Assembly: GCA_965223905.1 (NCBI GenBank)
Contig: CBDCXV010000010.1
Coordinates: 256,001 to 320,000 of the forward strand
Source: Candidatus Latescibacterota bacterium
GTDB taxonomy: Bacteria; Latescibacterota; UBA2968; UBA8231
Direction: 5' to 3'
DNA length: 64,000 bases
Position numbers and translations under genes: made by a program. Of this stretch, positions 11,457 to 46,688 are shown in pieces (the stretch's first letter is position 1; each line of letters opens with the position of its first letter). The notes under the pieces were generated by a model. That model did no database searches and was not told where the DNA came from. It saw only the letters and a program-made list of their open reading frames with translations.

Positions 11457-11671
11457 TGGTGGTTCTTCTCTCGAGTTGGTTTCGGGTAGCTGCCATGGTT
11501 CGGTTTCAGTTCGCCCCCCTTACCAGAGAAAGGGTAGGCCATGTTTCCTGCCGGGGGTACTTCAGACTCCAGGCCGCGCTGAGCTGAATGGTTCAGCGAA
11601 ATGAATAAGGTGCCATTCCGTTCACTGCACAAAAGCGTTGTCGCTACTGCGGCTGGTCCCGAAGCGGGTGC

Positions 11672-11957
11672 CCAAGTGCTCCAGCTCAACCCCGGGTTCC
11701 GGGTCCTGTTTCTGGGAGGGGAGGTGCTGAGCGAGATCGGACTGCACCTGAAGCGGGCGCTGTCCCCGGCGGTCACCGTCGCCGCGGCCTATAGCAACGG
11801 CCTGATCGGGTACATCCCCTCGAAGAACGCCTGGCCGCTGGGCGGGTACGAAGTCAAGGGATCACACTACTACTTCCGTTTGCCTGCTCCCTTCACCGAC
11901 GACGTCGAGGACCGGCTGGTGGAAGCGGCCCTCCGCGTCGTCGAGTCGATGACCTGA
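11672..11957 (+). pseudogene. orphan 3' end of ceramidase-like gene (repeat copy 2)
   Basis: QVLQLNPGFRVLFLGGEVLSEIG...VVESMT-stop, about 91% nt identity to 7895-8174, no N-terminus. Confidence 0.9.
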
Positions 11958-12026
11958 CCGTCAAGGAGGATCAGCCCGGCGCTCGTGAAGCCGCGCGGTC
12001 TTTCCGAGGAACCCAGAAAAAAATCG

Positions 12027-12803
12027 CTAACGGCAGGAAGCGAGAATCTCCCCGCTCAGCACCGTCGGGCACCAGAACTTCTCGATGTACTCGACCACCA
12101 GCCGCGTCCCCTCGTCGTGGCTGACGTAGGGGGGCATCGCCGGATCGTACATCGCGTCGGTCAGGTCGCGGACCAGGACGATGTTCTTCCCCCAGCGCAC
12201 CATCTGCTTGATCGCGAAGCCGCGGTTGAGGACGCACATGTTGGTGTGCACCCCCATGATCAGCAGGTTGTCCACACCCCGGTGGTGCATGCAGCTGAAC
12301 ACCTGCCTGCCGTCGTCGCTGACCAGGTCGGCGCCGTCGTCGATGTCGATGCCGGGGTGCTGCCGCGTCCAGGCGGTGCCGTCCCGGTGTGGGTCGTGGT
12401 ACTGCCGGTCGATCGCCTCGGTGTCGGAGCCCCCGTCGCTGGAATCGACCGGTTGCGGCGGGTCCTCCCGCTCGAGGTCGGGCGGCGGGGCGACCGGCTC
12501 GGCGTCGAGAACGCGCTGCCGCGCCGGCGTGCCGGCGTAGAACTCCATGGTGCTCGAAGGGGCGTGCACGATCTGCACCCCGGAAGCGCGCGCCGCGGCG
12601 ACCACCTCGTTCATGCGCGGCACCATGGCGTCGACCCGTTCCGAGGCGCCGCGGCTCCAGTGCTTGTTCCAGACGTCGCACAGCAGCAGCGCGGTCGCGG
12701 CGAAGTCGTATTCCGCTTCGGTGGCGACCACCTCCCAGCGGGCGCGGCCCCCCTCGTCCTGCCCGAGCCGCTGTTGCCGCAGATTCAGATGAAGCTTGTT
12801 CAT
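12027..12803 (-). CDS. isochorismatase-like (cysteine hydrolase) family protein
   Basis: ALLLCDVWNKHW, IVHAPS, MGVHTNMCV, RDLTDAMY. Confidence 0.85.
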   Translation of the reverse strand: MNKLHLNLRQQRLGQDEGGRARWEVVATEAEYDFAATALLLCDVWNKHWSRGASERVDAMVPRMNEVVAAARASGVQIVHAPSSTMEFYAGTPARQRVLDAEPVAPPPDLEREDPPQPVDSSDGGSDTEAIDRQYHDPHRDGTAWTRQHPGIDIDDGADLVSDDGRQVFSCMHHRGVDNLLIMGVHTNMCVLNRGFAIKQMVRWGKNIVLVRDLTDAMYDPAMPPYVSHDEGTRLVVEYIEKFWCPTVLSGEILASCR

Positions 12804-12804
12804 T

Positions 12805-13695
12805 TCAGTCCCCTCCCGTCGCCGCAGGTTCAGAAACCGGAAGCGGTTCCCCCCCTTTGCAGACCTCGGGGAAATGGGGGCCCGCGGCGCTCATCGGCCC
12901 GCCGTCGGCCACCTCGACGAACTGCTTCATCAGGTGTTCCCCGCTCGCGTCGAAGACCGCGTCCCCGGTCATGTAGTGAATCGCTATGGCCCGCCGCGGC
13001 CGCTCCGACCTGTTGAACGGCGACCCGTGCCAGTTGAGGCTGTGGTGGAAGGAGACCTCCCCCCGTTTCACCGGCAGCGGCCTCGGCCTGACCTCGGAAA
13101 TCTCCGCTCCCTCCGGCGGCGAGAACCCGTCGATATCCCCGAATTCGTCGAGCTGCGTCAGTGCCCCCTGGGTGCGCAGGAACTCGATCTGGTTACCCCA
13201 GCGGAAGCTGCCGGGAACCATCCACATGCAGCCGTTCTCCTCGTCGGCGTCGTCGAGCGGCACCCAGGCCGACACCGGGGTCATCGGCTTGATGATCGGC
13301 CACAGCGGCGCATCCTGGTGCCATCGGGTGGAGCCGCCGCGCGCCGCGGGTTTGTACTGGATCTGGTCGTGCCAGACCATCAGGTCGGGATGGCCGGTCA
13401 GCTGACTCACCGCCCGCACGAGGAAGGGGTGGGACATCAGGCGCCGGAAAGCGTCCGAGGCTTCCCAGATATTGACGATCTGCCACACCGGATGCCCGCT
13501 GACCCCGCCGCCACGAGCCCCCATGTCGCGAAAGGAAACCGGCTGCGGGTCCCCCGGACCGAACCCGTCCGGACCGATGTCGAGAATGCGGTCGAGCTCC
13601 GCCCCGAGCTCGTCGACCTCCTCCAGCGACAGCGCCTTGCCCGCGTTGATGAAACCGTTGCGCTCGAACTCCTGCATCTGCTGCTCGCTCAGCAC
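12805..13695 (-). CDS. phytanoyl-CoA dioxygenase family protein
   Basis: GTG start after AGGAGG; WHQD, WVPLDDADEENGCM..VPGS, FHH...WHGS..N. Confidence 0.92.
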   Translation of the reverse strand: MLSEQQMQEFERNGFINAGKALSLEEVDELGAELDRILDIGPDGFGPGDPQPVSFRDMGARGGGVSGHPVWQIVNIWEASDAFRRLMSHPFLVRAVSQLTGHPDLMVWHDQIQYKPAARGGSTRWHQDAPLWPIIKPMTPVSAWVPLDDADEENGCMWMVPGSFRWGNQIEFLRTQGALTQLDEFGDIDGFSPPEGAEISEVRPRPLPVKRGEVSFHHSLNWHGSPFNRSERPRRAIAIHYMTGDAVFDASGEHLMKQFVEVADGGPMSAAGPHFPEVCKGGEPLPVSEPAATGGD

Positions 13696-14142
13696 GTTGT
13701 TCCTCCTGAATCGAGGTTCGTTTCCGGGATGGCGGTCTCTGCGGAATCTCCTTGCCCGTGCCTGCCGGACGGCCATTTGGCCTGCCCCGCGGATCCCGCG
13801 TCGATAATTGTCCGTCGCCCAGGGGGAAACCGCAATGCCTCCGGGGCCGGAAGCTCCGGGTTTCACGGTGGATCGGGCTTGGGGGATTCCCTGAAAAAAA
13901 GCTGTCGGGGAAAATGGAGCGACTCCGGGGCCCTGCCGGGCCGTTTGCCTTAGAAGCGTTGGCCCTCCGCCGGCGCTGGTCCCTCCTTCAACTGGGGGAC
14001 CCTTCGCGGGCATGTTTCACCTTCCCCCCGGGTGCTGCCCCAGACTTCTGGATGCTCCGCTGCACAGTTTCGGCCGACGGCTGCCGTGTCCGGCCGATTA
14101 TGGGAATACTTCCTTCCCTGGGTTTCCTCCGGGGGTAAATCG

Positions 14143-14171
14143 TTGACGGGGGCGCCAATGGCGCCTTTATT
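14143..14171 (+). promoter_or_regulatory. putative promoter with palindromic operator for the TA operon
   Basis: TTGACG (14143-14148), palindrome GGCGCCA-A-TGGCGCC (14151-14165), weak -10 TTTATT; ATG at 14180 without an SD. Confidence 0.5.
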
Positions 14172-14179
14172 GGGTTGGC

Positions 14180-14524
14180 ATGCCCACCTGCCTGCAAACT
14201 GTGGTCGAGACGCCCGCTTACCTCGCGGCGGCCAAGGGTGTTCTGTCAGAAACCGAACGGTCCGAGGTCGTCAACACGGTAGCCTTGGACCCAGAAGCAG
14301 GAGTGGGGCTCGGTGGCGGACTCCGAAAAGTGAGGATCTCCCGCCAGGGATCCGGAAAACGCGGTGGGGCGCGTGTAGTATTCCTGTTCTCCGGCAGAGA
14401 CATTCCCGTATTCCTGCTTACTGTCTTCGCCAAGAACGAGAAAGCGACCCTCACTACCCGAGAACGAAAAGCGCTGATCGCTGCCGCAAAGCAGATAGTC
14501 GACAACTACAGGAGGTCCGAATGA
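14180..14524 (+). CDS. RelE/ParE (HigB-like) toxin
   Basis: VVETPAY...GGGLRKVRI...GKRGGARV...FLLTVFAKNEK. Confidence 0.88.
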   Translation: MPTCLQTVVETPAYLAAAKGVLSETERSEVVNTVALDPEAGVGLGGGLRKVRISRQGSGKRGGARVVFLFSGRDIPVFLLTVFAKNEKATLTTRERKALIAAAKQIVDNYRRSE

Positions 14525-14823
14525 GCAAGGCATTCGACAAGGTCCTGGCCGGGCTTGGTGACGCCCGCGCCTTCCTGGACGGCGAGCGGGAGGGGTTCGC
14601 GCTGCATGAAGTTGCAGTTCCCGAACCGGATGTCGTGGCAATCCGGGGAAAGACGGGACTGTCTCAGCTCGCCTTTGCAAAGAGCATCGGTGTTGCGCTG
14701 GGCACTCTCAAGAATTGGGAGCAGGGCCGGCGGCGCCCCGAGGGACCGGCGCGAGTGCTTCTCGCGCTGATCGAAAAGCGGCCGTCGATCGTTCAGGAAG
14801 AGCTCGGCGCCAGATTTTCCTGA
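14521..14823 (+). CDS. XRE-type HTH antitoxin (HigA-like)
   Basis: ATGA overlap with toxin; DVVAIRGKTGLSQLAFA...TLKNWEQGRRRPEGPARVLL. Confidence 0.9.
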   Translation: MSKAFDKVLAGLGDARAFLDGEREGFALHEVAVPEPDVVAIRGKTGLSQLAFAKSIGVALGTLKNWEQGRRRPEGPARVLLALIEKRPSIVQEELGARFS

Positions 14824-14896
14824 TCTTGGGCACGATGGCATCGGTATTCCCAAGAAACAACCCGGATCCGGAAATTTCGATTCGCAGCCAGCCTAA

Positions 14897-15790
14897 ATGA
14901 CCCCGAACACTAAATATGATCCCCATTACATAAGCTGCTTCTACGACGACTACGGGGAACGCGAATGGGAAAGGTTCGAGCGGAGTGCGGCGGACCGGGT
15001 CAATTTCCGCGTCCACCTCCACCATCTTCAGCGGTTCGTCAAAGCCGGCGATGACGTGCTCGACGCGGGGGCCGGCCCCGGACGTTTCACTATCGAGCTT
15101 GCGCGCATCGGGACGACCGTCACCGTAGTCGACATATCGCCGGTGCAGTTGGAACTGAACCGGCAGAAATTGAGCGAAGCGGGGTTCGAGCCCAACGTCT
15201 CCGGGCGTTATCTCGCGGACATAGTCGACCTGCGCCAATTCCCCGACGCCGCCTTCGATGCAACGGTCTGCTACGGCGGCGGATTGAGCCACGTGATGGA
15301 CCAGGCCGGAAACGCACTCGCCGAGCTCGTTCGCGTTACGAAACCCGGCGGTTACGTTTTGGTCAGCGTAATGTCCCTGGTTGGCAGCGCCGGGGCGTTG
15401 CTCTCAAAGTTTCCCGACCTGATCGAAGGATTCGGACGCGAAAGCCTCGACAGAGAGCTTGAAACCGGAGATCTATGCGGGCCGACTTCGCGGGGCAACA
15501 GGTGTCACATGTACCGCTGGAGGGAGTTGGAAGCTTTGTTGAGCACGCAGGATTGCGAAATAGTCGAGAAGTCCGCGGCGAATTTCCTGGCCATCCGGAA
15601 CGAAGGTATCCTGACGGTTTTCGAACAGAACCCCGAACTGTACGACTGGTTCCTGCGCTGGGAGACCGAGTACTGCCAGGAGCCGGGAGCAATCGACGGC
15701 GGTACTCACATCATCGCAGTTGTCAGGCGAAGGGACGCCTGTTATCGACACGATTCGAGATCGAGCGGAAGCGTGGGTATAACCGAATAA
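14897..15790 (+). CDS. class I SAM-dependent methyltransferase
   Basis: VLDAGAGPG, VDIS, FDATVC, LVRVTKPGG. Confidence 0.9.
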   Translation: MTPNTKYDPHYISCFYDDYGEREWERFERSAADRVNFRVHLHHLQRFVKAGDDVLDAGAGPGRFTIELARIGTTVTVVDISPVQLELNRQKLSEAGFEPNVSGRYLADIVDLRQFPDAAFDATVCYGGGLSHVMDQAGNALAELVRVTKPGGYVLVSVMSLVGSAGALLSKFPDLIEGFGRESLDRELETGDLCGPTSRGNRCHMYRWRELEALLSTQDCEIVEKSAANFLAIRNEGILTVFEQNPELYDWFLRWETEYCQEPGAIDGGTHIIAVVRRRDACYRHDSRSSGSVGITE

Positions 15791-41314: not shown

Positions 41315-41608
41315 CTTCCTCGGGACAGGACAGGAATATCGCTTATGCCCGGAACTCCGGGCAGCAACCCTCAGCGTGGGCTAGGCTCTTGGCTCCCGAC
41401 TACCGCCCAATTTCCGTGCTTTAGTTGAAGAACCAATCGAAGAGTACTCCTAAGAGGCCAACAACAAATGCGCTTAGTGCGATTACGCGAACGAAATACC
41501 AGACAGTATTCATGAAATCCCACAGCCTATCTTTCCAATGCTTCTTCAAAGGTGATCTCCCTCCTCCCGACCTAACTAAGATATCGTGACCCTATGCCGG
41601 GATTACCC

Positions 41609-42723
41609 ATGACTGCTGAAAACCGGATAGAACGGATGGAAGCGCGGATCCGGGAGGCAGGCGAGCTGGCTTCCGACTTCGCCCGCGATCCGCACCGGCC
41701 GGCCTGGCACTTCACGCCGCCGGCCGCCTGGATGAACGACATCAACGGCGCCCTCTACTGGAAGGGGCGCTACCACATCTTCTACCAGCTCAACCCGGAC
41801 GGGGCCTACTGGAACCGCATCCAGTGGGGGCACGCCTCGAGCGCCGACCTCGTGCACTGGGTCCACCATCCTGTGGCGCTGACGCCGGAAGCGGACGGAC
41901 CGGACCGCATCGGCTGCTTCAGCGGCGGCGCCCTGGTCGACAAGGAAGGAGTTCCGACGCTCATCTACTACGGCAACCCCGACGGCCTCTGCCTCGCCCG
42001 CAGCAGCGACGACCTGCTGCTCGAGTGGACGAAAGACCCGGGCAATCCCGTGATCCCCCAGCCGGAAGAAGGGAGCGCGGACTTCGGCCGCTACACCATC
42101 CACGACCCCTGCGGCTGGTTGGAGGGCGGCCTCTACTACGCCGCGGTCAACAGGCGTGACCCTCAAGGCCAGGGGGACGGGGCCTACCTGTTCAGATCGC
42201 GGGAACTGCGGAACTGGGAGTTCGCCGGCCTGTTCTACCAGTCCCGCCGGGAGTGGACGGAGGGAGGCGAGGACTGCGCCGTGCCCGACTTCTTCCCGCT
42301 CGGCAACCGGCACCTGCTGCTCTTCTGCAGCCACCTGCAGGGAACCCAGTACTACATCGGCGAGGTCCGGGAGGAACGGTTTTACCCGGACATCCACGGG
42401 CGCATGAGCTGGGAAGGGGGCCATCTCGGCGGGCCGCGGACCCTGCTCGACGCCCAAGGCCGGCGCGTCTTCTTCGACTGGATCCGCGAGCTGCGCGGCG
42501 TCGAGCGGGAGCGCGCTTCCGGATGGTCCGGCGTCATGACCGCCCCGCGGCTGTTGTCGCTGGATTCGGACGGTCACCTGCAGATCGAACCTGCACCGGA
42601 GCTCGAGGTATTGCGGCTGGATCAGGGCGGGCACGGGCCCGTTGACCTGGCCGCCGATTCCGAGGTGCCAGTGGAAGGGGTCGGCGGCGACTGCCTGGAG
42701 CTGGCAGTCGAGATCGATCCGCT
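41609..42723 (+). pseudogene. glycoside hydrolase family 32, N-terminal part (interrupted by IS)
   Basis: RPAWHF...WMNDING, HIFYQ, WGHASSADL.HW, FSGG, HDP, EDCAVPDFF; breaks at LAVEIDP. Confidence 0.92.
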
Positions 42724-42761
42724 GGTAGTCCCTCAGTTTGAAATATTCTATATTGAGAAGA

Positions 42762-42801
42762 GTGAGGTCCCCCCTGCAATACCATCCGGGGGGGACCTCA
42801 C
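42762..42801. repeat. 13-bp perfect inverted repeat in the IS left end
   Basis: GTGAGGTCCCCCC (42762-42774) / GGGGGGACCTCAC (42789-42801). Confidence 0.85.
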
Positions 42802-42804
42802 AGT

Positions 42805-42873
42805 GGGGCAGGCTTAGTGCGCCACCGGGCTTCCGATCCTGGCTAGGCGAGGGTTCGATTCCCTCCTGCTCCA
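42805..42873 (+). ncRNA. tRNA/tmRNA-like element lacking a D-arm
   Basis: Acceptor-like stem GGGGCAG/CTGCTCC+A; T-arm GAGGG-TTCGATT-CCCTC; central nested stems GCTTAG/CTAGGC and CCGGG/CCTGG. Confidence 0.6.
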
Positions 42874-42898
42874 CTTTCTCTTTTCCAAGAACGCCGTC

Positions 42899-43747
42899 AT
42901 GAACCGCCTGCTTCTAAAAAAGCGCGAGCTCATCCTGAAGTGCCTTGTGGACGGAATGTCCTTGCTGGCCACTTCGCGCATTGCCTGTGTCGCTGAAAAC
43001 ACCGTAGCGCGATTGCAGCTTCTCGCCGGCGAAGTCGCTTGCGACTTTCAGGACGAACATTTACGCAACCTCAAACTGGACAGCATCGAGCTCGACGAAA
43101 TCTGGTCGTTCGTGTACGTCAAACAGAAACGTCTCGAGCAGGCGAAGCGACCACCGGAAAACGCCGGCGACTCGTGGGTCTGGATAGCCATCGACCGAAA
43201 GACCAAGCTGGTCCCCTGCTGGTTAGTGGGCGGACGCTCACAGGAAGATGCCAATCTCTTCATCGAGGACCTCGCGCAACGGTTGTCAGGAGCTCCACAG
43301 CTGACCTCAGACGCCTACGCTCTCTACATCGAAGCTATCTATCGAGCCTTCGGTTCTCAAGTCGATTACGCCATGCTGAAGAAAGAGCACAAGCCCGACT
43401 CGCCTTCCCGCAAGACGCGCATCTCCGGCGATCCGGACGACGATCTCATTTCCACCTCGATTGCGGAACGGCAGAATCTTACCATGCGCATGTCGATGCG
43501 GCGCTTCACCCGGCGTACCAACGCTTTCTCGAAACGATTTCGCAATCACGCCTTTGCCGTCGCGCTCTACTACCTGAACTACAACTTCTGCCGTGTCCAT
43601 CAGACCATCGAAACCACTCCGGCCATCAAAGCCGGGGTGACGAATCGTCGTCTGTCTCTTCTGGAAGTGGCTCAGATGACGTTAGAAGCCGAGCCAAAAC
43701 CGAATCGTCCGAAACGGTATCGGAAACAGAATCGCGATTATCGATAG
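42899..43747 (+). CDS. IS1-family DDE transposase
   Basis: N-terminal HTH (LVDGMSLLATSRI), IELDEIWSFV, WVWIAID..TKLV, TSDAY..Y, STSIAERQNLTMR...RFTRRTNAFSK. Confidence 0.92.
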   Translation: MNRLLLKKRELILKCLVDGMSLLATSRIACVAENTVARLQLLAGEVACDFQDEHLRNLKLDSIELDEIWSFVYVKQKRLEQAKRPPENAGDSWVWIAIDRKTKLVPCWLVGGRSQEDANLFIEDLAQRLSGAPQLTSDAYALYIEAIYRAFGSQVDYAMLKKEHKPDSPSRKTRISGDPDDDLISTSIAERQNLTMRMSMRRFTRRTNAFSKRFRNHAFAVALYYLNYNFCRVHQTIETTPAIKAGVTNRRLSLLEVAQMTLEAEPKPNRPKRYRKQNRDYR

Positions 43748-43831
43748 CATCTCCGACAGCTTTGGCAAACTGGATCGGGTAATCTTGGCGACCGATGTTA
43801 TGCCGTTTTCCCAGCGAAATTCTTGCTTTCG

Positions 43832-44086
43832 TCATACTTCCTCCATTTGTTCGCGCAACTCCCTGCGAAGCTGAGGAATGGTGATGACCTTGGCGGCCAA
43901 ACTGGCGTTTTGTCCCTGCAAATCATCCAGCTGGGCATGCATCACCTGAAAACCTTCCCGCATTTCCTTTTCCAGCCGATCGAAGCGCTGGTCCATCTGC
44001 TCAAAACGCTTGAGCACCTTCTGATTGAACGCTTCCTGAGCATCGAAGCGCTTGAGCATCTCTTTCTGGAACTCTTCCTGGCTCAT
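43832..44086 (-). CDS. small coiled-coil protein (IS cargo, paralog 2)
   Basis: GAGGAATGCCGGA-ATG; MSQEEFQKEML...RFEQMDQRFD...LRRELRE. Confidence 0.8.
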   Translation of the reverse strand: MSQEEFQKEMLKRFDAQEAFNQKVLKRFEQMDQRFDRLEKEMREGFQVMHAQLDDLQGQNASLAAKVITIPQLRRELREQMEEV

Positions 44087-44114
44087 TCCGGCATTCCTCA
44101 CTTGATTCGAGGTT

Positions 44115-44381
44115 TCATGCTTCCTGGAGCTCCCGTTCGCGAAGTTCCCGGCGTAACGCCGGAACAGTCACTATAGTAGCAGCCAACCCGGCTAGCTGGG
44201 ACTGCATGTCATCCAGTTTTTCCTCGACGTGGTCGAAGCGCTTGTCCATTTGCTCGAAGCGCCGAAGAACTTCCTGATTGAACTCTTTCTGATCCTTCTG
44301 GAACTCCAACATCTGATTCTGGAACTCCAACATCTGATTCTGGAACTCCAACATCTGATTCTGGAACTTTTCCTGGTTCAT
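44115..44381 (-). CDS. small coiled-coil protein with heptad repeat (IS cargo, paralog 1)
   Basis: GAGGAATACCGGA-ATG overlapping the upstream stop (ATGA); MNQEK(FQNQMLE)x3...RFEQMDKRFD...LRRELRE. Confidence 0.8.
   Translation of the reverse strand: MNQEKFQNQMLEFQNQMLEFQNQMLEFQKDQKEFNQEVLRRFEQMDKRFDHVEEKLDDMQSQLAGLAATIVTVPALRRELRERELQEA
44296..44368. repeat. 21-bp tandem repeat, about 3.5 copies
   Basis: TTCTGGAACTCCAACATCTGA at 44296, 44317 and 44338, partial at 44359. Confidence 0.95.
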
Positions 44382-45634
44382 TCCGGTATTCCTCCACGTA
44401 AAGGATAGCGGCCAACACCGCAGCGCCAGCGAGGTTCGCCGGCCGTCACCTTGGCCGACCGAGGCGGAACCTGATAGGGTTCGGCTCGAGACACGTCCAC
44501 CTCGTATCCCAGATCCGCTAGCGCCTGAATCGTAATCAGGCTGAGAGGACGAATTTCGTCCGAGACGGCTCCGGACGTCATGATCTCGTTCCCCAGAACG
44601 TCTTCTCGCCAATGGGAGAAATAGTTTCCGTTCTCGACCGGCACTCCTTTTCTAGCCGCACGCGCCCTTTCGCGATACCATCCGCCTCCGGCTGACTCAA
44701 ACGCCGCTCTGCTCAAAATTCCCTTGAAGTAGGTGTCGGCATTCAGAGAACGATTGACCAAGCGCTCGTCCCACTCTTCTCCTCCCTGTAGCAGGATGTG
44801 ACCCAATTCATGGATCATCGTACGAAACACGTGAGAATCGGATTCAGAGCGAATAAACTCGGAATCCAGAACCACGAGGCCGTTGATGGCAACTCCGGAA
44901 GAAGATCGAAACCACAAAGTCTGAGCACTGCCGTTTACGCCGTACCCCAAATCAGCGGTAGTTGCATGAACGCGCACGTCGTCGATAAGATCATTTTCTA
45001 CAATCCTTCCAAACCACTGCTCGTGAGCACTGCCGGCCCACCAGGACATGTCGTCGGTATCCAATGTATGCCAGGCGAAATAATACCTGTCCTGGACATC
45101 GTTCGTAACGATCCGCTCCCACGTGACCGCGGCGCGCTCGAACAGCTCCCGATGGCGGTCGGTGAACTCGTTGCCTTCGGCGAACACGAGCTCGATGTCG
45201 AACAGTGAAGGTCTCAGGGGCAAACCGATCCCGTAGGGGTTGGACACACCGGAATCGGCCATCTCCGCCCAGACGTAGGCGCCCAGCAGTCCCAAGTCGA
45301 TCCATCCGGTGACTCCGTCCCGGTCGATGTCGAGCAAGTCCAGATCCAGAGGAACATGGTACCAAGGACTGGAGAGATGAATCCAGAGTCCCTCCACGTC
45401 GAAAATGTTCACCCACCCGTCCACGACCCCGTCTCCCAGAAGGCGTCCATCCACCGTCGCCTTGGGGCTGCCCCGCTCGCTAGACGGCCGCTGGATGGGC
45501 AACTCGATCCCCCGTTCAGCAAACCAGGTTCTCATTTCAGTGTACGCTTGCTCCCTGTCGGGCTCGTGTACCCGTGAGGGCGACTCACAGCCGGCCAGCA
45601 AGACCGACAACAGCAGGAGGATGGTGGCAATCAT
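44378..45634 (-). CDS. lipoprotein zinc metalloprotease, leishmanolysin/M8-like, with dockerin/EF-hand-like segment (IS cargo)
   Basis: LLAGC lipobox; DIDRDGVTGWIDL; HELGH...SHW.E....NEIMT...LSLITI.AL.DLGY. Confidence 0.82.
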   Translation of the reverse strand: MIATILLLLSVLLAGCESPSRVHEPDREQAYTEMRTWFAERGIELPIQRPSSERGSPKATVDGRLLGDGVVDGWVNIFDVEGLWIHLSSPWYHVPLDLDLLDIDRDGVTGWIDLGLLGAYVWAEMADSGVSNPYGIGLPLRPSLFDIELVFAEGNEFTDRHRELFERAAVTWERIVTNDVQDRYYFAWHTLDTDDMSWWAGSAHEQWFGRIVENDLIDDVRVHATTADLGYGVNGSAQTLWFRSSSGVAINGLVVLDSEFIRSESDSHVFRTMIHELGHILLQGGEEWDERLVNRSLNADTYFKGILSRAAFESAGGGWYRERARAARKGVPVENGNYFSHWREDVLGNEIMTSGAVSDEIRPLSLITIQALADLGYEVDVSRAEPYQVPPRSAKVTAGEPRWRCGVGRYPLRGGIPE

Positions 45635-45881
45635 CCTTGTCCCCTTCCCGTGTGTGCCCGAGAAGCCGGGCTGTGCCACCGTCCACAGCAGTCCGGGACG
45701 ATCCCGCTTATTTGCGAGACGCCAGGGTAATTACTCCCGGCGCCGGGATTTGATTCGCTGTTGTATTCAGCAGGAAACCCGGCGACACGCAGGGTCCGCT
45801 GTGAAACGGTGGCATCTGAGAACATACGCAAAATACCCACTTGACAATAGTTAGTGTCCTTTCTGTCTTTCTGCGCCTCTT

Positions 45882-46039
45882 GGACCGGTGACCCCCCCAC
45901 CACTGACAGGGCTACTCACCCTGGGCATTTCGAGAATCGACACCCCGTAGCACGAGGTGAGCAACGCAGAGGATGTCGATTTCTCTCCCTTGTGGGCCTT
46001 GTCAATCCCAGGTGTGCGGTGGTCACCGGCCCTCCTTTG
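45882..46039. ncRNA. candidate structured RNA, tandem unit 1
   Basis: Closing stem CCGGTGACC/GGTCACCGG with nested stems; homologous to unit 2 with compensatory changes; TTGACA at 45841 upstream on +. Confidence 0.5.
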
Positions 46040-46049
46040 ATGAACATTT

Positions 46050-46203
46050 GGGCCGGTGACCCAACCTGCCACCTGCCAAAGCTACTCGTCCGGGAAGAAT
46101 AGAATCGATACTCCGCAGCACGAGACGAGCAACGCAGAGCGTATCGACTTCCCTTCCTGTGAGCCTTGTCAATCCCAGGCAGGCGGTCACCGGCCCTCCT
46201 TTG
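46050..46203. ncRNA. candidate structured RNA, tandem unit 2
   Basis: Closing stem GGGCCGGTGACC/GGTCACCGGCCC; shares GAGCAACGCAGAG, GCCTTGTCAATCCCAGG and CCTCCTTTG blocks with unit 1. Confidence 0.5.
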
Positions 46204-46268
46204 CCGAAACCAGTGAGGAGATCGGTTTCGGCAAAAGACAGATCCAAATTTCAAACTGAGGCATTACC

Positions 46269-46688
46269 GATCCGCTGGAAGCGAAGGAGGTGGGACTGAA
46301 GGTGCTGCGCTCTCCTGGAGGCGAGGAGGAAACCGCAGTCTCCTGGGACGCCGAGGCAGCGGTGCTGCGGGTCGACCTCAGCCGGTCGTCCCTCGACCGG
46401 GAGATCCGCTACACCCGCTACCGAAGGCTTCAGCCGCACCTGACGGAGAGCGAGCAATACGTCACCGCCCAGGAGGGGCCGTTCGAGCTGCAACCAGGGG
46501 AGCTGCTGACCCTGCGAATCTTCCTCGACCGCTCGATCCTCGAGGTCTTCGCCAACCGCCGGCAATGCGTGACCCAGCGCATCTACCCGACGCGGCCCGA
46601 CAGCACCGGCGTCAGCCTGTTCGCGCGCGGGGGCGATGCCAGGGTGCGGTCGCTGCAGGCATGGACCCTGGCGCCGGCGCGGATGTGA
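46269..46688 (+). pseudogene. glycoside hydrolase family 32, C-terminal part
   Basis: [16 protein letters not shown]...[15 protein letters not shown]...TQRIYP, the GH32 C-terminal beta-sandwich. Confidence 0.92.

Follow-up and report, generated by a model that had tools for sequence, protein, structure and literature searches.

In the 64,000-nucleotide stretch of DNA analyzed here (the window; positions 256,001 to 320,000 of contig CBDCXV010000010.1, Candidatus Latescibacterota bacterium), an insertion sequence (IS) of the IS1 family carries a small operon as cargo, and two related units of about 165 nt each are found head to tail between this operon and the right end of the element. The two units result from one ancient tandem duplication, with a period of 168 nt, of a non-coding element. 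They likely share a conserved fold which belongs to the RNA read from the minus strand, the evidence for this being moderate and short of proof. The units are thereby a candidate unclassified structured RNA, represented by a single locus within an IS1-family element that carries cargo. The explanation that we tentatively prefer, as plausible and somewhat short of probable, is that they form a structured cis-acting leader of the minus-strand messenger RNA (mRNA) of the cargo operon.

A tandem duplication of a non-coding element

In order to compare the two units, they were aligned with MAFFT, which gave 157 aligned columns with 34 substitutions (23 transitions and 11 transversions), 8 gap columns and 78% identity. 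Their starts are separated by 164-168 nt. When unit 1 was compared by blastn with the rest of the window, unit 2 was recovered at 76.8% over 164 columns with an E-value of 1e-26, the runner-up having an E-value of 1.3. The 168-nt period was not reported by Tandem Repeats Finder, because the copies are too diverged and the array falls under its score. The indels between the units measure 3, 1, 2 and 2 nt and break every reading frame, and the units are therefore non-coding. A preliminary description of this DNA had proposed two diverged, non-coding, structured units in tandem at the right end of the IS, and this proposal holds: all the sequences that it quoted are found where it placed them, and the frame-breaking indels agree with the lack of coding capacity.

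Each unit is closed by GG(A/G)CCGGTGACC and GGTCACCGGCCC, followed by CCTCCTTTG. The terminal inverted repeats have perfect arms of 12 nt in unit 2 and arms of 24 nt at 79% in unit 1. Ends of this kind, together with a length of about 160 bp, a long hairpin potential, the absence of coding capacity and the location inside a mobile element, are shared with miniature inverted-repeat transposable elements (MITEs) and with palindromic repeats such as ERIC, Correia elements and REPINs. The units could then be a selfish or neutral palindromic DNA repeat, or an old tandem duplication in decay, without RNA function, whose compensatory changes come from hairpin-templated repair or from chance. We hold this explanation to be unlikely. 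No target-site duplication was found around either unit (flanks CCTCTT/TCCTTT for unit 1 and ACATTT/TCCTTT for unit 2), and the homology between the units continues beyond the inverted repeats and takes in the CCTCCTTTG..GAA.C tail, which fits the tandem duplication of a segment and not two insertions. Further points on both sides of this alternative are given below with the structure tests and the searches.

Anatomy of the minus-strand RNA

Read on the minus strand, the right end of the element contains, in order, the right inverted repeat (IRR), a hairpin (H0), the Shine-Dalgarno (SD)-like AAAGGAGG with unit 2, a linker of 11 nt, AAAGGAGG again with unit 1, 245 nt, and the ATG of a lipoprotein gene (Table 1). 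The 3' end of the host 16S rRNA (...GGAUCACCUCCUUUCU / CCUCCUUUCU / ..CACCUCCUUUCU) is perfectly complementary to AAAGGAGG, which is therefore a perfect SD sequence of 8 nt. In both units a GUG stands 4 nt after AAAGGAGG and is buried inside P1, the closing helix; the SD sequence itself is free in unit 1. One pair of P1 in unit 1 is a G-U on the minus strand, which corresponds to A-C on the plus strand. The units also contain invariant unpaired blocks of 13-17 nt.

The SD sequence, the 4-nt spacing and the GUG are kept in both units, and the unit-2 frame is open for 55 codons, with its UGA overlapping the unit-1 GUG (GUGA). These features could point to small proteins, or to peptides like type I toxins, which start at the GUG after AAAGGAGG and whose start codon is hidden by the fold-back helix. 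The long-range 5'-3' pairing over the start region, seen in fold-back mRNAs of type I toxin-antitoxin (TA) systems, is indeed present, as P1 contains the GUG. However, a 1-nt indel after about 12 codons shifts the frame, so that the two peptides have only MT(T)A(H/C)LGLTR in common, and both are basic, with no hydrophobic helix in either. No protein hit was obtained for the open reading frames (ORFs) of the units: phmmer with a 112-aa minus-strand ORF over the units gave 0 hits among 1.84 billion representatives, and an 82-aa plus-strand ORF over the units had no candidate among proteins. A conserved hydrophobic toxin ORF was thus not found, and the type I TA-like fold-back mRNA mentioned in the preliminary description does not stand, because its GUG frames (36 and 55 codons) are neither conserved between the units nor hydrophobic. 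Translation of the units into such peptides is, in our opinion, very improbable.

Two further helices are P4 and helix B. Between the units, P4 differs by one double change and two G-U transitions. Helix B pairs GUUGCUC(AC/GU)CU with GG(GU/AC)GAGUAGC on the minus strand and corresponds to the pairing previously given as CTCACC (45915-20) with GGTGAG (45956-61) in unit 1, which becomes CTCGTC (46085-90) with GACGAG (46124-29) in unit 2; in addition, TCGACA/TGTCGA in one unit becomes TCGATA/TATCGA in the other. Helix B reaches 11 bp on the minus strand because two invariant G-U pairs join it, whereas on the plus strand these are A-C mismatches and only 6 bp form. As P4 encloses the 5' arm of helix B, and the 3' arm of B is outside P4, the two helices form either a pseudoknot or alternative conformers. 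When helix B was enforced, the folding energy of unit 1 was -75.2 versus a minimum free energy (MFE) of -76.6 kcal/mol (a cost of 1.4), and that of unit 2 was -70.3 versus -79.0 kcal/mol (a cost of 8.7). Both the covarying pairings and the pseudoknot or switch topology that had been read by eye are supported.

The hairpin that was noted after unit 2 is also present, and it is larger than the 12 bp claimed for it: the arms of H0 are 15 nt long and 93% complementary (46197-46211 with 46224-46238). Its 3' arm contains the AAAGGA of the SD-like 8-mer preceding unit 2 and abuts P1 of that unit. A U-tract after H0 was not found on either strand.

Tests of structure and strand

First, the folds of the single units were compared with those of dinucleotide shuffles. 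The z-scores were -2.9 and -4.1 on the plus strand and -4.0 and -4.2 on the minus strand; since the folds beat the shuffles on both strands, the strand is not settled by this test. The RNAalifold consensus of the two units amounted to -54.6 kcal/mol on the minus strand versus -37.7 on the plus strand. Upon shuffling of the alignment columns, none of the 300 shuffles was as good as the minus consensus (z -5.09), versus 2 of the 300 for the plus consensus (z -2.51).

In a random-substitution null, unit 1 was kept and the 34 observed substitutions were placed at random. On the minus strand, the stems of at least 8 bp that pair in both units were four in number and comprised 41 pairs and 3 double compensations, versus a null mean of 12 pairs (standard deviation 9) at this divergence of 22%; the corresponding P values were 0.001 for the pairs and 0.015 for the doubles (0.0006 and 0.009 in another run). 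On the plus strand, a single stem of 9 pairs was obtained (P 0.31, range 0.31-0.50). The folding energy retained under the same null gave P values of 0.003-0.03 on both strands. Finally, in a curated structure made of P1, P1b, P2, P3, P3b/P4 and B, 94 of 96 cells pair, with 4 two-sided changes and 5 one-sided changes through G-U, while in slid controls 29-51% of the cells pair, with 0-1 doubles. The structural constraint postulated for the units is thus borne out by the long-stem, curated-structure and consensus-fold tests.

Three of the one-sided changes, in P1 and P4, give G-U pairs on the minus strand and would give A-C on the plus strand. Pairing is thus conserved asymmetrically between the strands through G-U, which neither a DNA cruciform nor a strand-symmetric mutation process predicts, and the excess of long-stem pairs at 22% divergence is likewise a point against a MITE-like repeat. 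On the other hand, several of the structure tests are only marginal, and helix B has its two double changes side by side, which is what one templated event would give. The strand, which the preliminary description had left open, now leans to minus (consensus z -5.1 versus -2.5; long stems P about 0.001 versus 0.3). This minus-strand evidence disfavours the anti-SD small RNA (sRNA) that had been among the earlier suggestions, and favours a leader of the cargo operon.

In its explicit form, the former suggestion would have plus-strand RNAs start from the TTGACA at 45841, lie antisense to the cargo leader and each end in a single-stranded CCUCCUUU, which would mimic the 16S 3' end or titrate SD sequences. 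The TTGACA is present (45841-45846), 36 nt upstream of unit 1, the tail CCCUCCUUUG does resemble the host 16S 3' end CACCUCCUUUC, and the single-sequence folds of the plus strand beat shuffles. However, the TTGACA is followed by no acceptable -10 element and was not retained as a promoter site. Moreover, on the plus strand A-C mismatches appear in P1 of unit 1, in P4 and in helix B, the long stems common to both units do not exceed the null, and the consensus is the weaker of the two. We consider such plus-strand RNAs quite improbable.

The same strand and structure evidence is also compatible with one or two independent trans-acting sRNAs of the minus strand, which would be separately transcribed or else released from the leader through cleavage by RNase E/G or RNase III, in the manner of tandem sRNA paralogues or of 6S-like rods processed from a transcript with a downstream ORF. 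The compact rod shape, in which the 5' and 3' ends pair into a closing helix, the invariant unpaired blocks and the RNase E/G of the host (472 bits) would suit such molecules. However, neither a promoter-like site nor a terminator flanks the units (the terminator scan gave none on the minus strand), no 6S or other Rfam family was matched by the units at E-values up to 10, and no target was identified. Independent sRNAs therefore appear to us rather unlikely.

Searches for related sequences

The whole window was examined with the Rfam 15 covariance models, and no match reached the gathering cut-offs. When E-values up to 10 were allowed over 45600-46500, two matches were obtained, neither on the bodies of the units (CcsR1 at 18.9 bits and sR10, a spurious snoRNA, at 13 bits); the region 42700-46300 gave a similar result. 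At this level none of the known ribozyme families (hammerhead, twister, HDV, pistol, hatchet), 6S RNA or riboswitches scored on the units, so that the failure to match them by eye to a known family is confirmed by the scan.

Within the own genome, BLAST and the covariance model R1 found only the two units. No unit was found by BLAST in 60 relatives, nor by R1, with stricter filters, in 150 other genomes of the phylum; a blastn search in distant mode of plasmids and phages gave no homologue. For a MITE-like repeat, further copies in its own genome would be expected and are missing, although the lack of homologues, promoter and terminator would by itself agree with DNA of no function. R1 did not find the units in the flanks of 29 homologous peptidase loci and 2 IS loci of the own genome, nor in 28 related transposase loci and 3 larger regions. 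The proposed association of the units with IS1 ends in general is consequently not supported, the 28 related transposase loci being without them.

Scans for exact patterns were also carried out. In genome contigs they gave 3 matches, none of which was recognised by the covariance model, and in metagenome contigs 3 matches, two with 7.7-8.4 bits over the pattern alone and a third unmatched by the model. Three such scans of viral contigs gave 0, 7 and 2 matches, among which the sole model match (E 0.022) was an ordinary gene start. As these patterns demand exact blocks of 17-22 specified bases, diverged homologues would be missed. A scan of the own genome for AAGGAGG with a long-range stem of at least 10 bp returned 28 matches including the 2 units, and none of the others was similar. 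Listings from literature searches contained nothing on structured RNAs in IS1-family elements. Thus, a second locus was not found by any search, and the term "unrecognised ncRNA class" that had been used for the units is not sustained, because only one locus, with one duplicated element, is available.

The carrier element and its cargo

The coordinates of the units, of their helices and of the other features of the element are collected in Table 1.

Table 1. Features of the IS1-family element and of its tandem units (window coordinates)
Feature	Position	Strand	Remarks
Unit 1	45880-46042	minus	SD-like AAAGGAGG, P1, P4, helix B
Unit 2	46048-46206	minus	5'-proximal on the minus strand; SD-like AAAGGAGG, P1, P4, helix B
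P1, closing helix	unit 1 45882-45893 / 46021-46032; unit 2 46050-46061 / 46185-46196		12 bp, G+C-rich
P4	unit 1 45973-45981 / 45935-45943; unit 2 46141-46149 / 46103-46111		9 bp
Helix B	unit 1 45955-45965 / 45911-45921; unit 2 46123-46133 / 46081-46091		11 bp on minus
SD-like 8-mer AAAGGAGG	46038->46031 (unit 1); 46202->46195 (unit 2)	minus	
Hairpin H0	46197-46238	minus	arms 15-16 bp, loop with CUCCUC, 10 nt inside IRR
Stretch between unit 1 and lipoprotein ATG	45635-45879	minus	245 nt, structured, contains TTGTCA (TTGACA on plus, 45841-45846)
Cargo gene 1	44378-45634	minus	predicted lipoprotein of 418 aa (MIATILLLLSVLLAGC...), HELGH zinc motif (HEXXH)
Cargo gene 2	44115-44381	minus	small coiled-coil ORF, 21-nt repeats (EFQNQML), paralogue of cargo gene 3
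Cargo gene 3	43832-44101	minus	small coiled-coil ORF, likely start ATG at 44086
IS1-family DDE transposase	42899-43747	plus	single ORF, 282 aa
Left inverted repeat (IRL)	42724-42744	plus	21 nt, GGTAGTCCCTCAGTTTGAAAT
Right inverted repeat (IRR)	46248-46268	minus	21 nt, GGTAATGCCTCAGTTTGAAAT, 19/21 identical to IRL
Target-site duplication	42716-42723; second copy 46269-46276		8 bp, GATCCGCT

The carrier is an element of 3,545 bp (42724-46268) inserted in a GH32 gene. The search for its inverted repeats gave 2 matches versus 0 expected, and the position of the units at the right end of an IS, as first described, is confirmed by these 21-nt repeats. The Pfam N-terminal domain of GH32 is found at 41594-42817 (E 1e-56) and the C-terminal domain at 46290-46688 (E 3e-26); the two gene parts (41594-42723 and 46269-46688, plus strand) are continuous in frame (..EIDPL |..) across the empty site. 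The perfect 8-bp duplication and the otherwise continuous frame of the GH32 gene suggest that the insertion is recent. The G+C content is 0.50-0.63 in the element versus 0.67-0.73 in the flanking DNA.

The transposase matches Pfam PF03400 with 30.8 bits (cut-off 24.1) and NCBIfam transpos_IS1 with only 54 bits (cut-off 100). Among 8,000 scored candidates, 7,995 had an E-value of at most 1e-20, and nearly all of the 120 matches listed carry PF03400, several being named IS1 family transposase by their source. Thus the carrier has the DDE_Tnp_IS1 transposase, the terminal inverted repeats and a duplication within the 8-9 bp by which the IS1 family is defined. The nearest transposase among 5.8 billion proteins is 54% identical, and the element as a whole is a singleton. 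Related IS1-like elements have their right repeat at most about 20 nt from the transposase stop; the 2.5 kb that follow the transposase gene here, units included, are therefore cargo.

"Transporter IS" is the term used for IS elements that carry cargo. The element studied resembles the cargo-carrying members of the IS1 family in its IS1-type DDE transposase, its 21-nt inverted repeats starting with GGTA, its 8-bp duplication and its passengers placed between the transposase gene and IRR, but nothing corresponding to its passenger operon with a structured tandem leader was seen in the 28 related loci. Another IS1-like element with cargo was observed in a genome of the same family (locus L075, genome G010, 11615-14988). 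It measures 3,374 bp, its inverted repeats are 32 nt long (88%), the transposase is encoded at one end, and it further contains ORFs of 143 and 255 aa and an internal copy resembling the inverted repeat; the units were not found in it. In the own genome (G000), four more sites resemble the inverted repeat with 2 mismatches each: C9:758233-758253 (-), C10:1287578-1287598 (-), C10:1429319-1429339 (+) and C11:742597-742617 (+). One of them adjoins a broken transposase copy whose two fragments show 84% and 65% identity; another is located about 1 kb past the stop of a transposase with 47% identity, and that copy may carry cargo.

At the left end, a G+C-rich hairpin of 11 bp (42766-42800) stands 22 nt inside IRL and mirrors H0 at the right end; neither hairpin has a U-tract after it. 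Both end hairpins may be insulators against transcription from outside, or binding sites. Further inside, a tRNA-like element (42805-42876, plus strand) precedes the transposase ATG by 23 nt. Its acceptor stem of 7 bp includes a G3-U pair; the T-arm (GGTTCGATTCC) is canonical, and A-CUU comes after it. In the E-value mode of Rfam it matched the tRNA-like domain of tmRNA with 24 bits (E 4e-8) and mascRNA with 28.8 bits, both below gathering, and ARAGORN called no tRNA there. The degenerate element occupies the position of a tRNA-Ile(TAT) gene which is found 65-82 nt upstream, on the same strand, of two related IS1-like transposase genes (L052 2458-2549 (-) and L068 2432-2507 (-)), from a genome of the same genus and a genome of another family. 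A role in codon supply is not evident, because ATA codons are few (0-3) in the transposases beside tRNA-Ile(TAT).

The first cargo gene encodes a leishmanolysin/M8-like protein, with a Pfam score of 20.8 bits just below the cut-off of 21; the nearest peptidase is 48% identical. Cargo genes 2 and 3 (43832-44381, minus strand) have in common a direct repeat of 95 nt (74%) as well as periodic repeats of 21 nt that encode EFQNQML. The cargo proteins had no informative match in Pfam, NCBIfam or PADLOC, the best PADLOC hit being gop with a non-significant E-value of 0.0077. Between the ATG of the operon (45634) and IRR, the units are co-oriented with the cargo genes and upstream of them, and these are the only genes that they could serve. 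The 245-nt stretch that separates unit 1 from the lipoprotein gene is itself strongly structured (z -4.7 on the minus strand for the 160 nt starting at 45660), and the fold of the whole 659-nt leader on the minus strand has a z-score of -8.9, calculated with only 20 shuffles. In the region 45620-45820 (minus strand), several short G+C hairpins are visible, two of which score as terminator-like on the plus strand.

Comparison with known systems

The units were compared with known arrangements of structured RNA. As in tandem riboswitches and other structured 5' leaders, two homologous structured domains stand in series upstream of an operon and in its orientation, with covarying helices, conserved unpaired blocks and a possible pseudoknot or alternative helix. 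In contrast to tandem riboswitches, no ligand or expression platform is identified for the units and no homologue was found beyond the locus, so that they do not show the aptamer conserved across many genomes by which riboswitches are recognised. The proximal part of the leader is structured, and no connection between it and the units emerged. They also differ from known tandem leaders in that the leader here would be about 610 nt long and the units are missing upstream of homologous peptidase genes.

According to the portion of PMC4113751 considered here, the STAB-SD of Bacillus thuringiensis cry3A is an SD-like element within the 5' untranslated region which stabilises the mRNA by binding the 30S subunit, and it works by blocking RNase J1. 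By analogy, the nearest counterparts of the units would be 5' stem-loop stabilisers and this STAB-SD, as far as it is described there: in both cases a perfect SD-like sequence that complements the 3' end of the 16S rRNA lies far upstream of the real start and beside a stable structure. They differ from the STAB-SD so described in that the SD here precedes a GUG buried in a helix.

The tandem sRNAs CcsR1-4 ("cuckoo", RF02791) resemble the array in consisting of tandem homologous units and in the neighbouring hairpin H0 with its CUCCUC loop, on which alone CcsR1 matched (46171-46239; 18.9 bits, E 0.065, versus a gathering cut-off of 65.3). However, CcsR1 is recognised by two stem-loops with CCUCCUCCC loops, the units here have twice the length, and an inspection by eye of the element's ORFs showed no DUF1127-type gene. 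In type III TA systems the antitoxin (ToxI-like) consists of short repeats in tandem, nearly identical to one another, which precede a gene for an endoribonuclease toxin, whereas the units measure about 165 nt and are 78% identical, the downstream gene encodes a HEXXH lipoprotein and PADLOC gave no significant hit. MITEs, for their part, differ from the units in what was described above: the single locus, the lack of flanking target duplications, the homology that includes the tail and the strand-specific G-U pairing.

Several other candidates were considered and discarded. The pair of a template and a variable repeat of a diversity-generating retroelement was set aside as no reverse transcriptase was seen by eye and the differences are not adenine-specific. 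A retron, an integron attC site, a bridge RNA of IS110 type and a TnpB omega-RNA were rejected with their partner proteins absent and Rfam negative. A 6S-like RNA was dropped on the Rfam result only.

A possible leader of the cargo operon

We thus come back to the minus-strand leader of the cargo operon, a reading that is based on the strand-specific structure, on the orientation that the units share with the only genes close to them, and on the SD-like sites. Transcription of the units, their presence on the same transcript as the cargo genes and their regulatory mechanism are what we infer. In this model, each unit would be a rod of about 150 nt, closed by P1, which buries the GUG, and with the 9-bp P4 at its tip. 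The loop of P4 would pair over 11 bp with the rod's 3' strand to form helix B, and the outcome would be a pseudoknot or else an alternative conformer of almost the same energy. Through stable 5' structures and SD-like sites for the 30S subunit, the units would set the stability or the translation of the cargo mRNA. Their likeliest roles would be the protection of the 5' region of the mRNA and the control of ribosome access, to which a conformational switch between P4 and helix B could be added.

A number of results weigh against this leader. Only two sequences are available, both from a single locus, and 32 of 500 shuffles attain the values observed for the curated structure, as is expected with two sequences. 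Of the four long minus stems, one (UGGGAUUGA/UCGAUUCUA) arose in part artificially, when gap columns were dropped; the solid ones are three, namely P1 (12 bp), P4 (9 bp) and helix B. Shorter stems are without excess (shared-stem pairs, P 0.43, 0.53 and 0.08 for stems of at least 6, 5 and 7 bp, respectively), and the tests on the single-sequence MFE structures are mixed, with no distinction between the strands (P for broken pairs 0.13-0.22 on minus, 0.02-0.14 on plus). In 5.8% of the random placements, one stem of at least 6 bp is fully kept and carries two doubles; the double compensatory changes reported in the preliminary description are thus real, but taken alone they are weaker evidence (P 0.06) than was assumed. 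Templated (quasipalindrome) mutation could give adjacent compensatory changes without selection at the RNA level. The conservation of CAAAGGAGG at 9 of 9 positions is not significant given the 78% background identity (about 0.1). By our own geometric estimate, helix B would be compatible with P4 and hardly with the full P3+P4 stack, which makes P3+P4+B sterically doubtful and, therefore, a two-state switch as plausible as a static pseudoknot.

Further objections come from the context of the units. The promoter scan of 45500-46400 gave no site on either strand, and inspection of the 245-nt stretch by eye showed neither an intrinsic terminator nor an expression platform. The 3 sequencing runs listed, of which 2 contain the stretch, include no RNA run; all belong to one study, likely that of the source sample. 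As the units are missing beside the 29 homologous peptidase loci, this gene family does not have them as a conserved leader. The best host match to RNase J (TIGR00649) reached 43 bits versus a cut-off of 400, so that the STAB-SD mechanism, in the form given by the source, would not apply.

A bolder proposal, which we regard as improbable, is that the two units represent a new structured RNA fold of which no other members have been sampled, namely a rod whose closing helix measures 12 bp and whose loop forms a pseudoknot with an internal strand. Such a fold would act as a two-state sensor of a ligand, a protein or the ribosome, or would be self-processing, and it would have been duplicated in the cargo-bearing IS1-family element for autonomous expression of the passengers in new hosts.

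Because no relatives were found in anything searched, there is nothing general to build yet on this locus, and its value is that of a starting point for transcriptomics in the source organism and for searching metagenome assemblies in full by covariance model. If the leader reading is true, a cargo IS would bring along its own duplicated RNA control region for its passenger genes. The locus would then be a small example of mobile elements that carry regulatory RNA together with their protein cargo, and a candidate for a new RNA fold.

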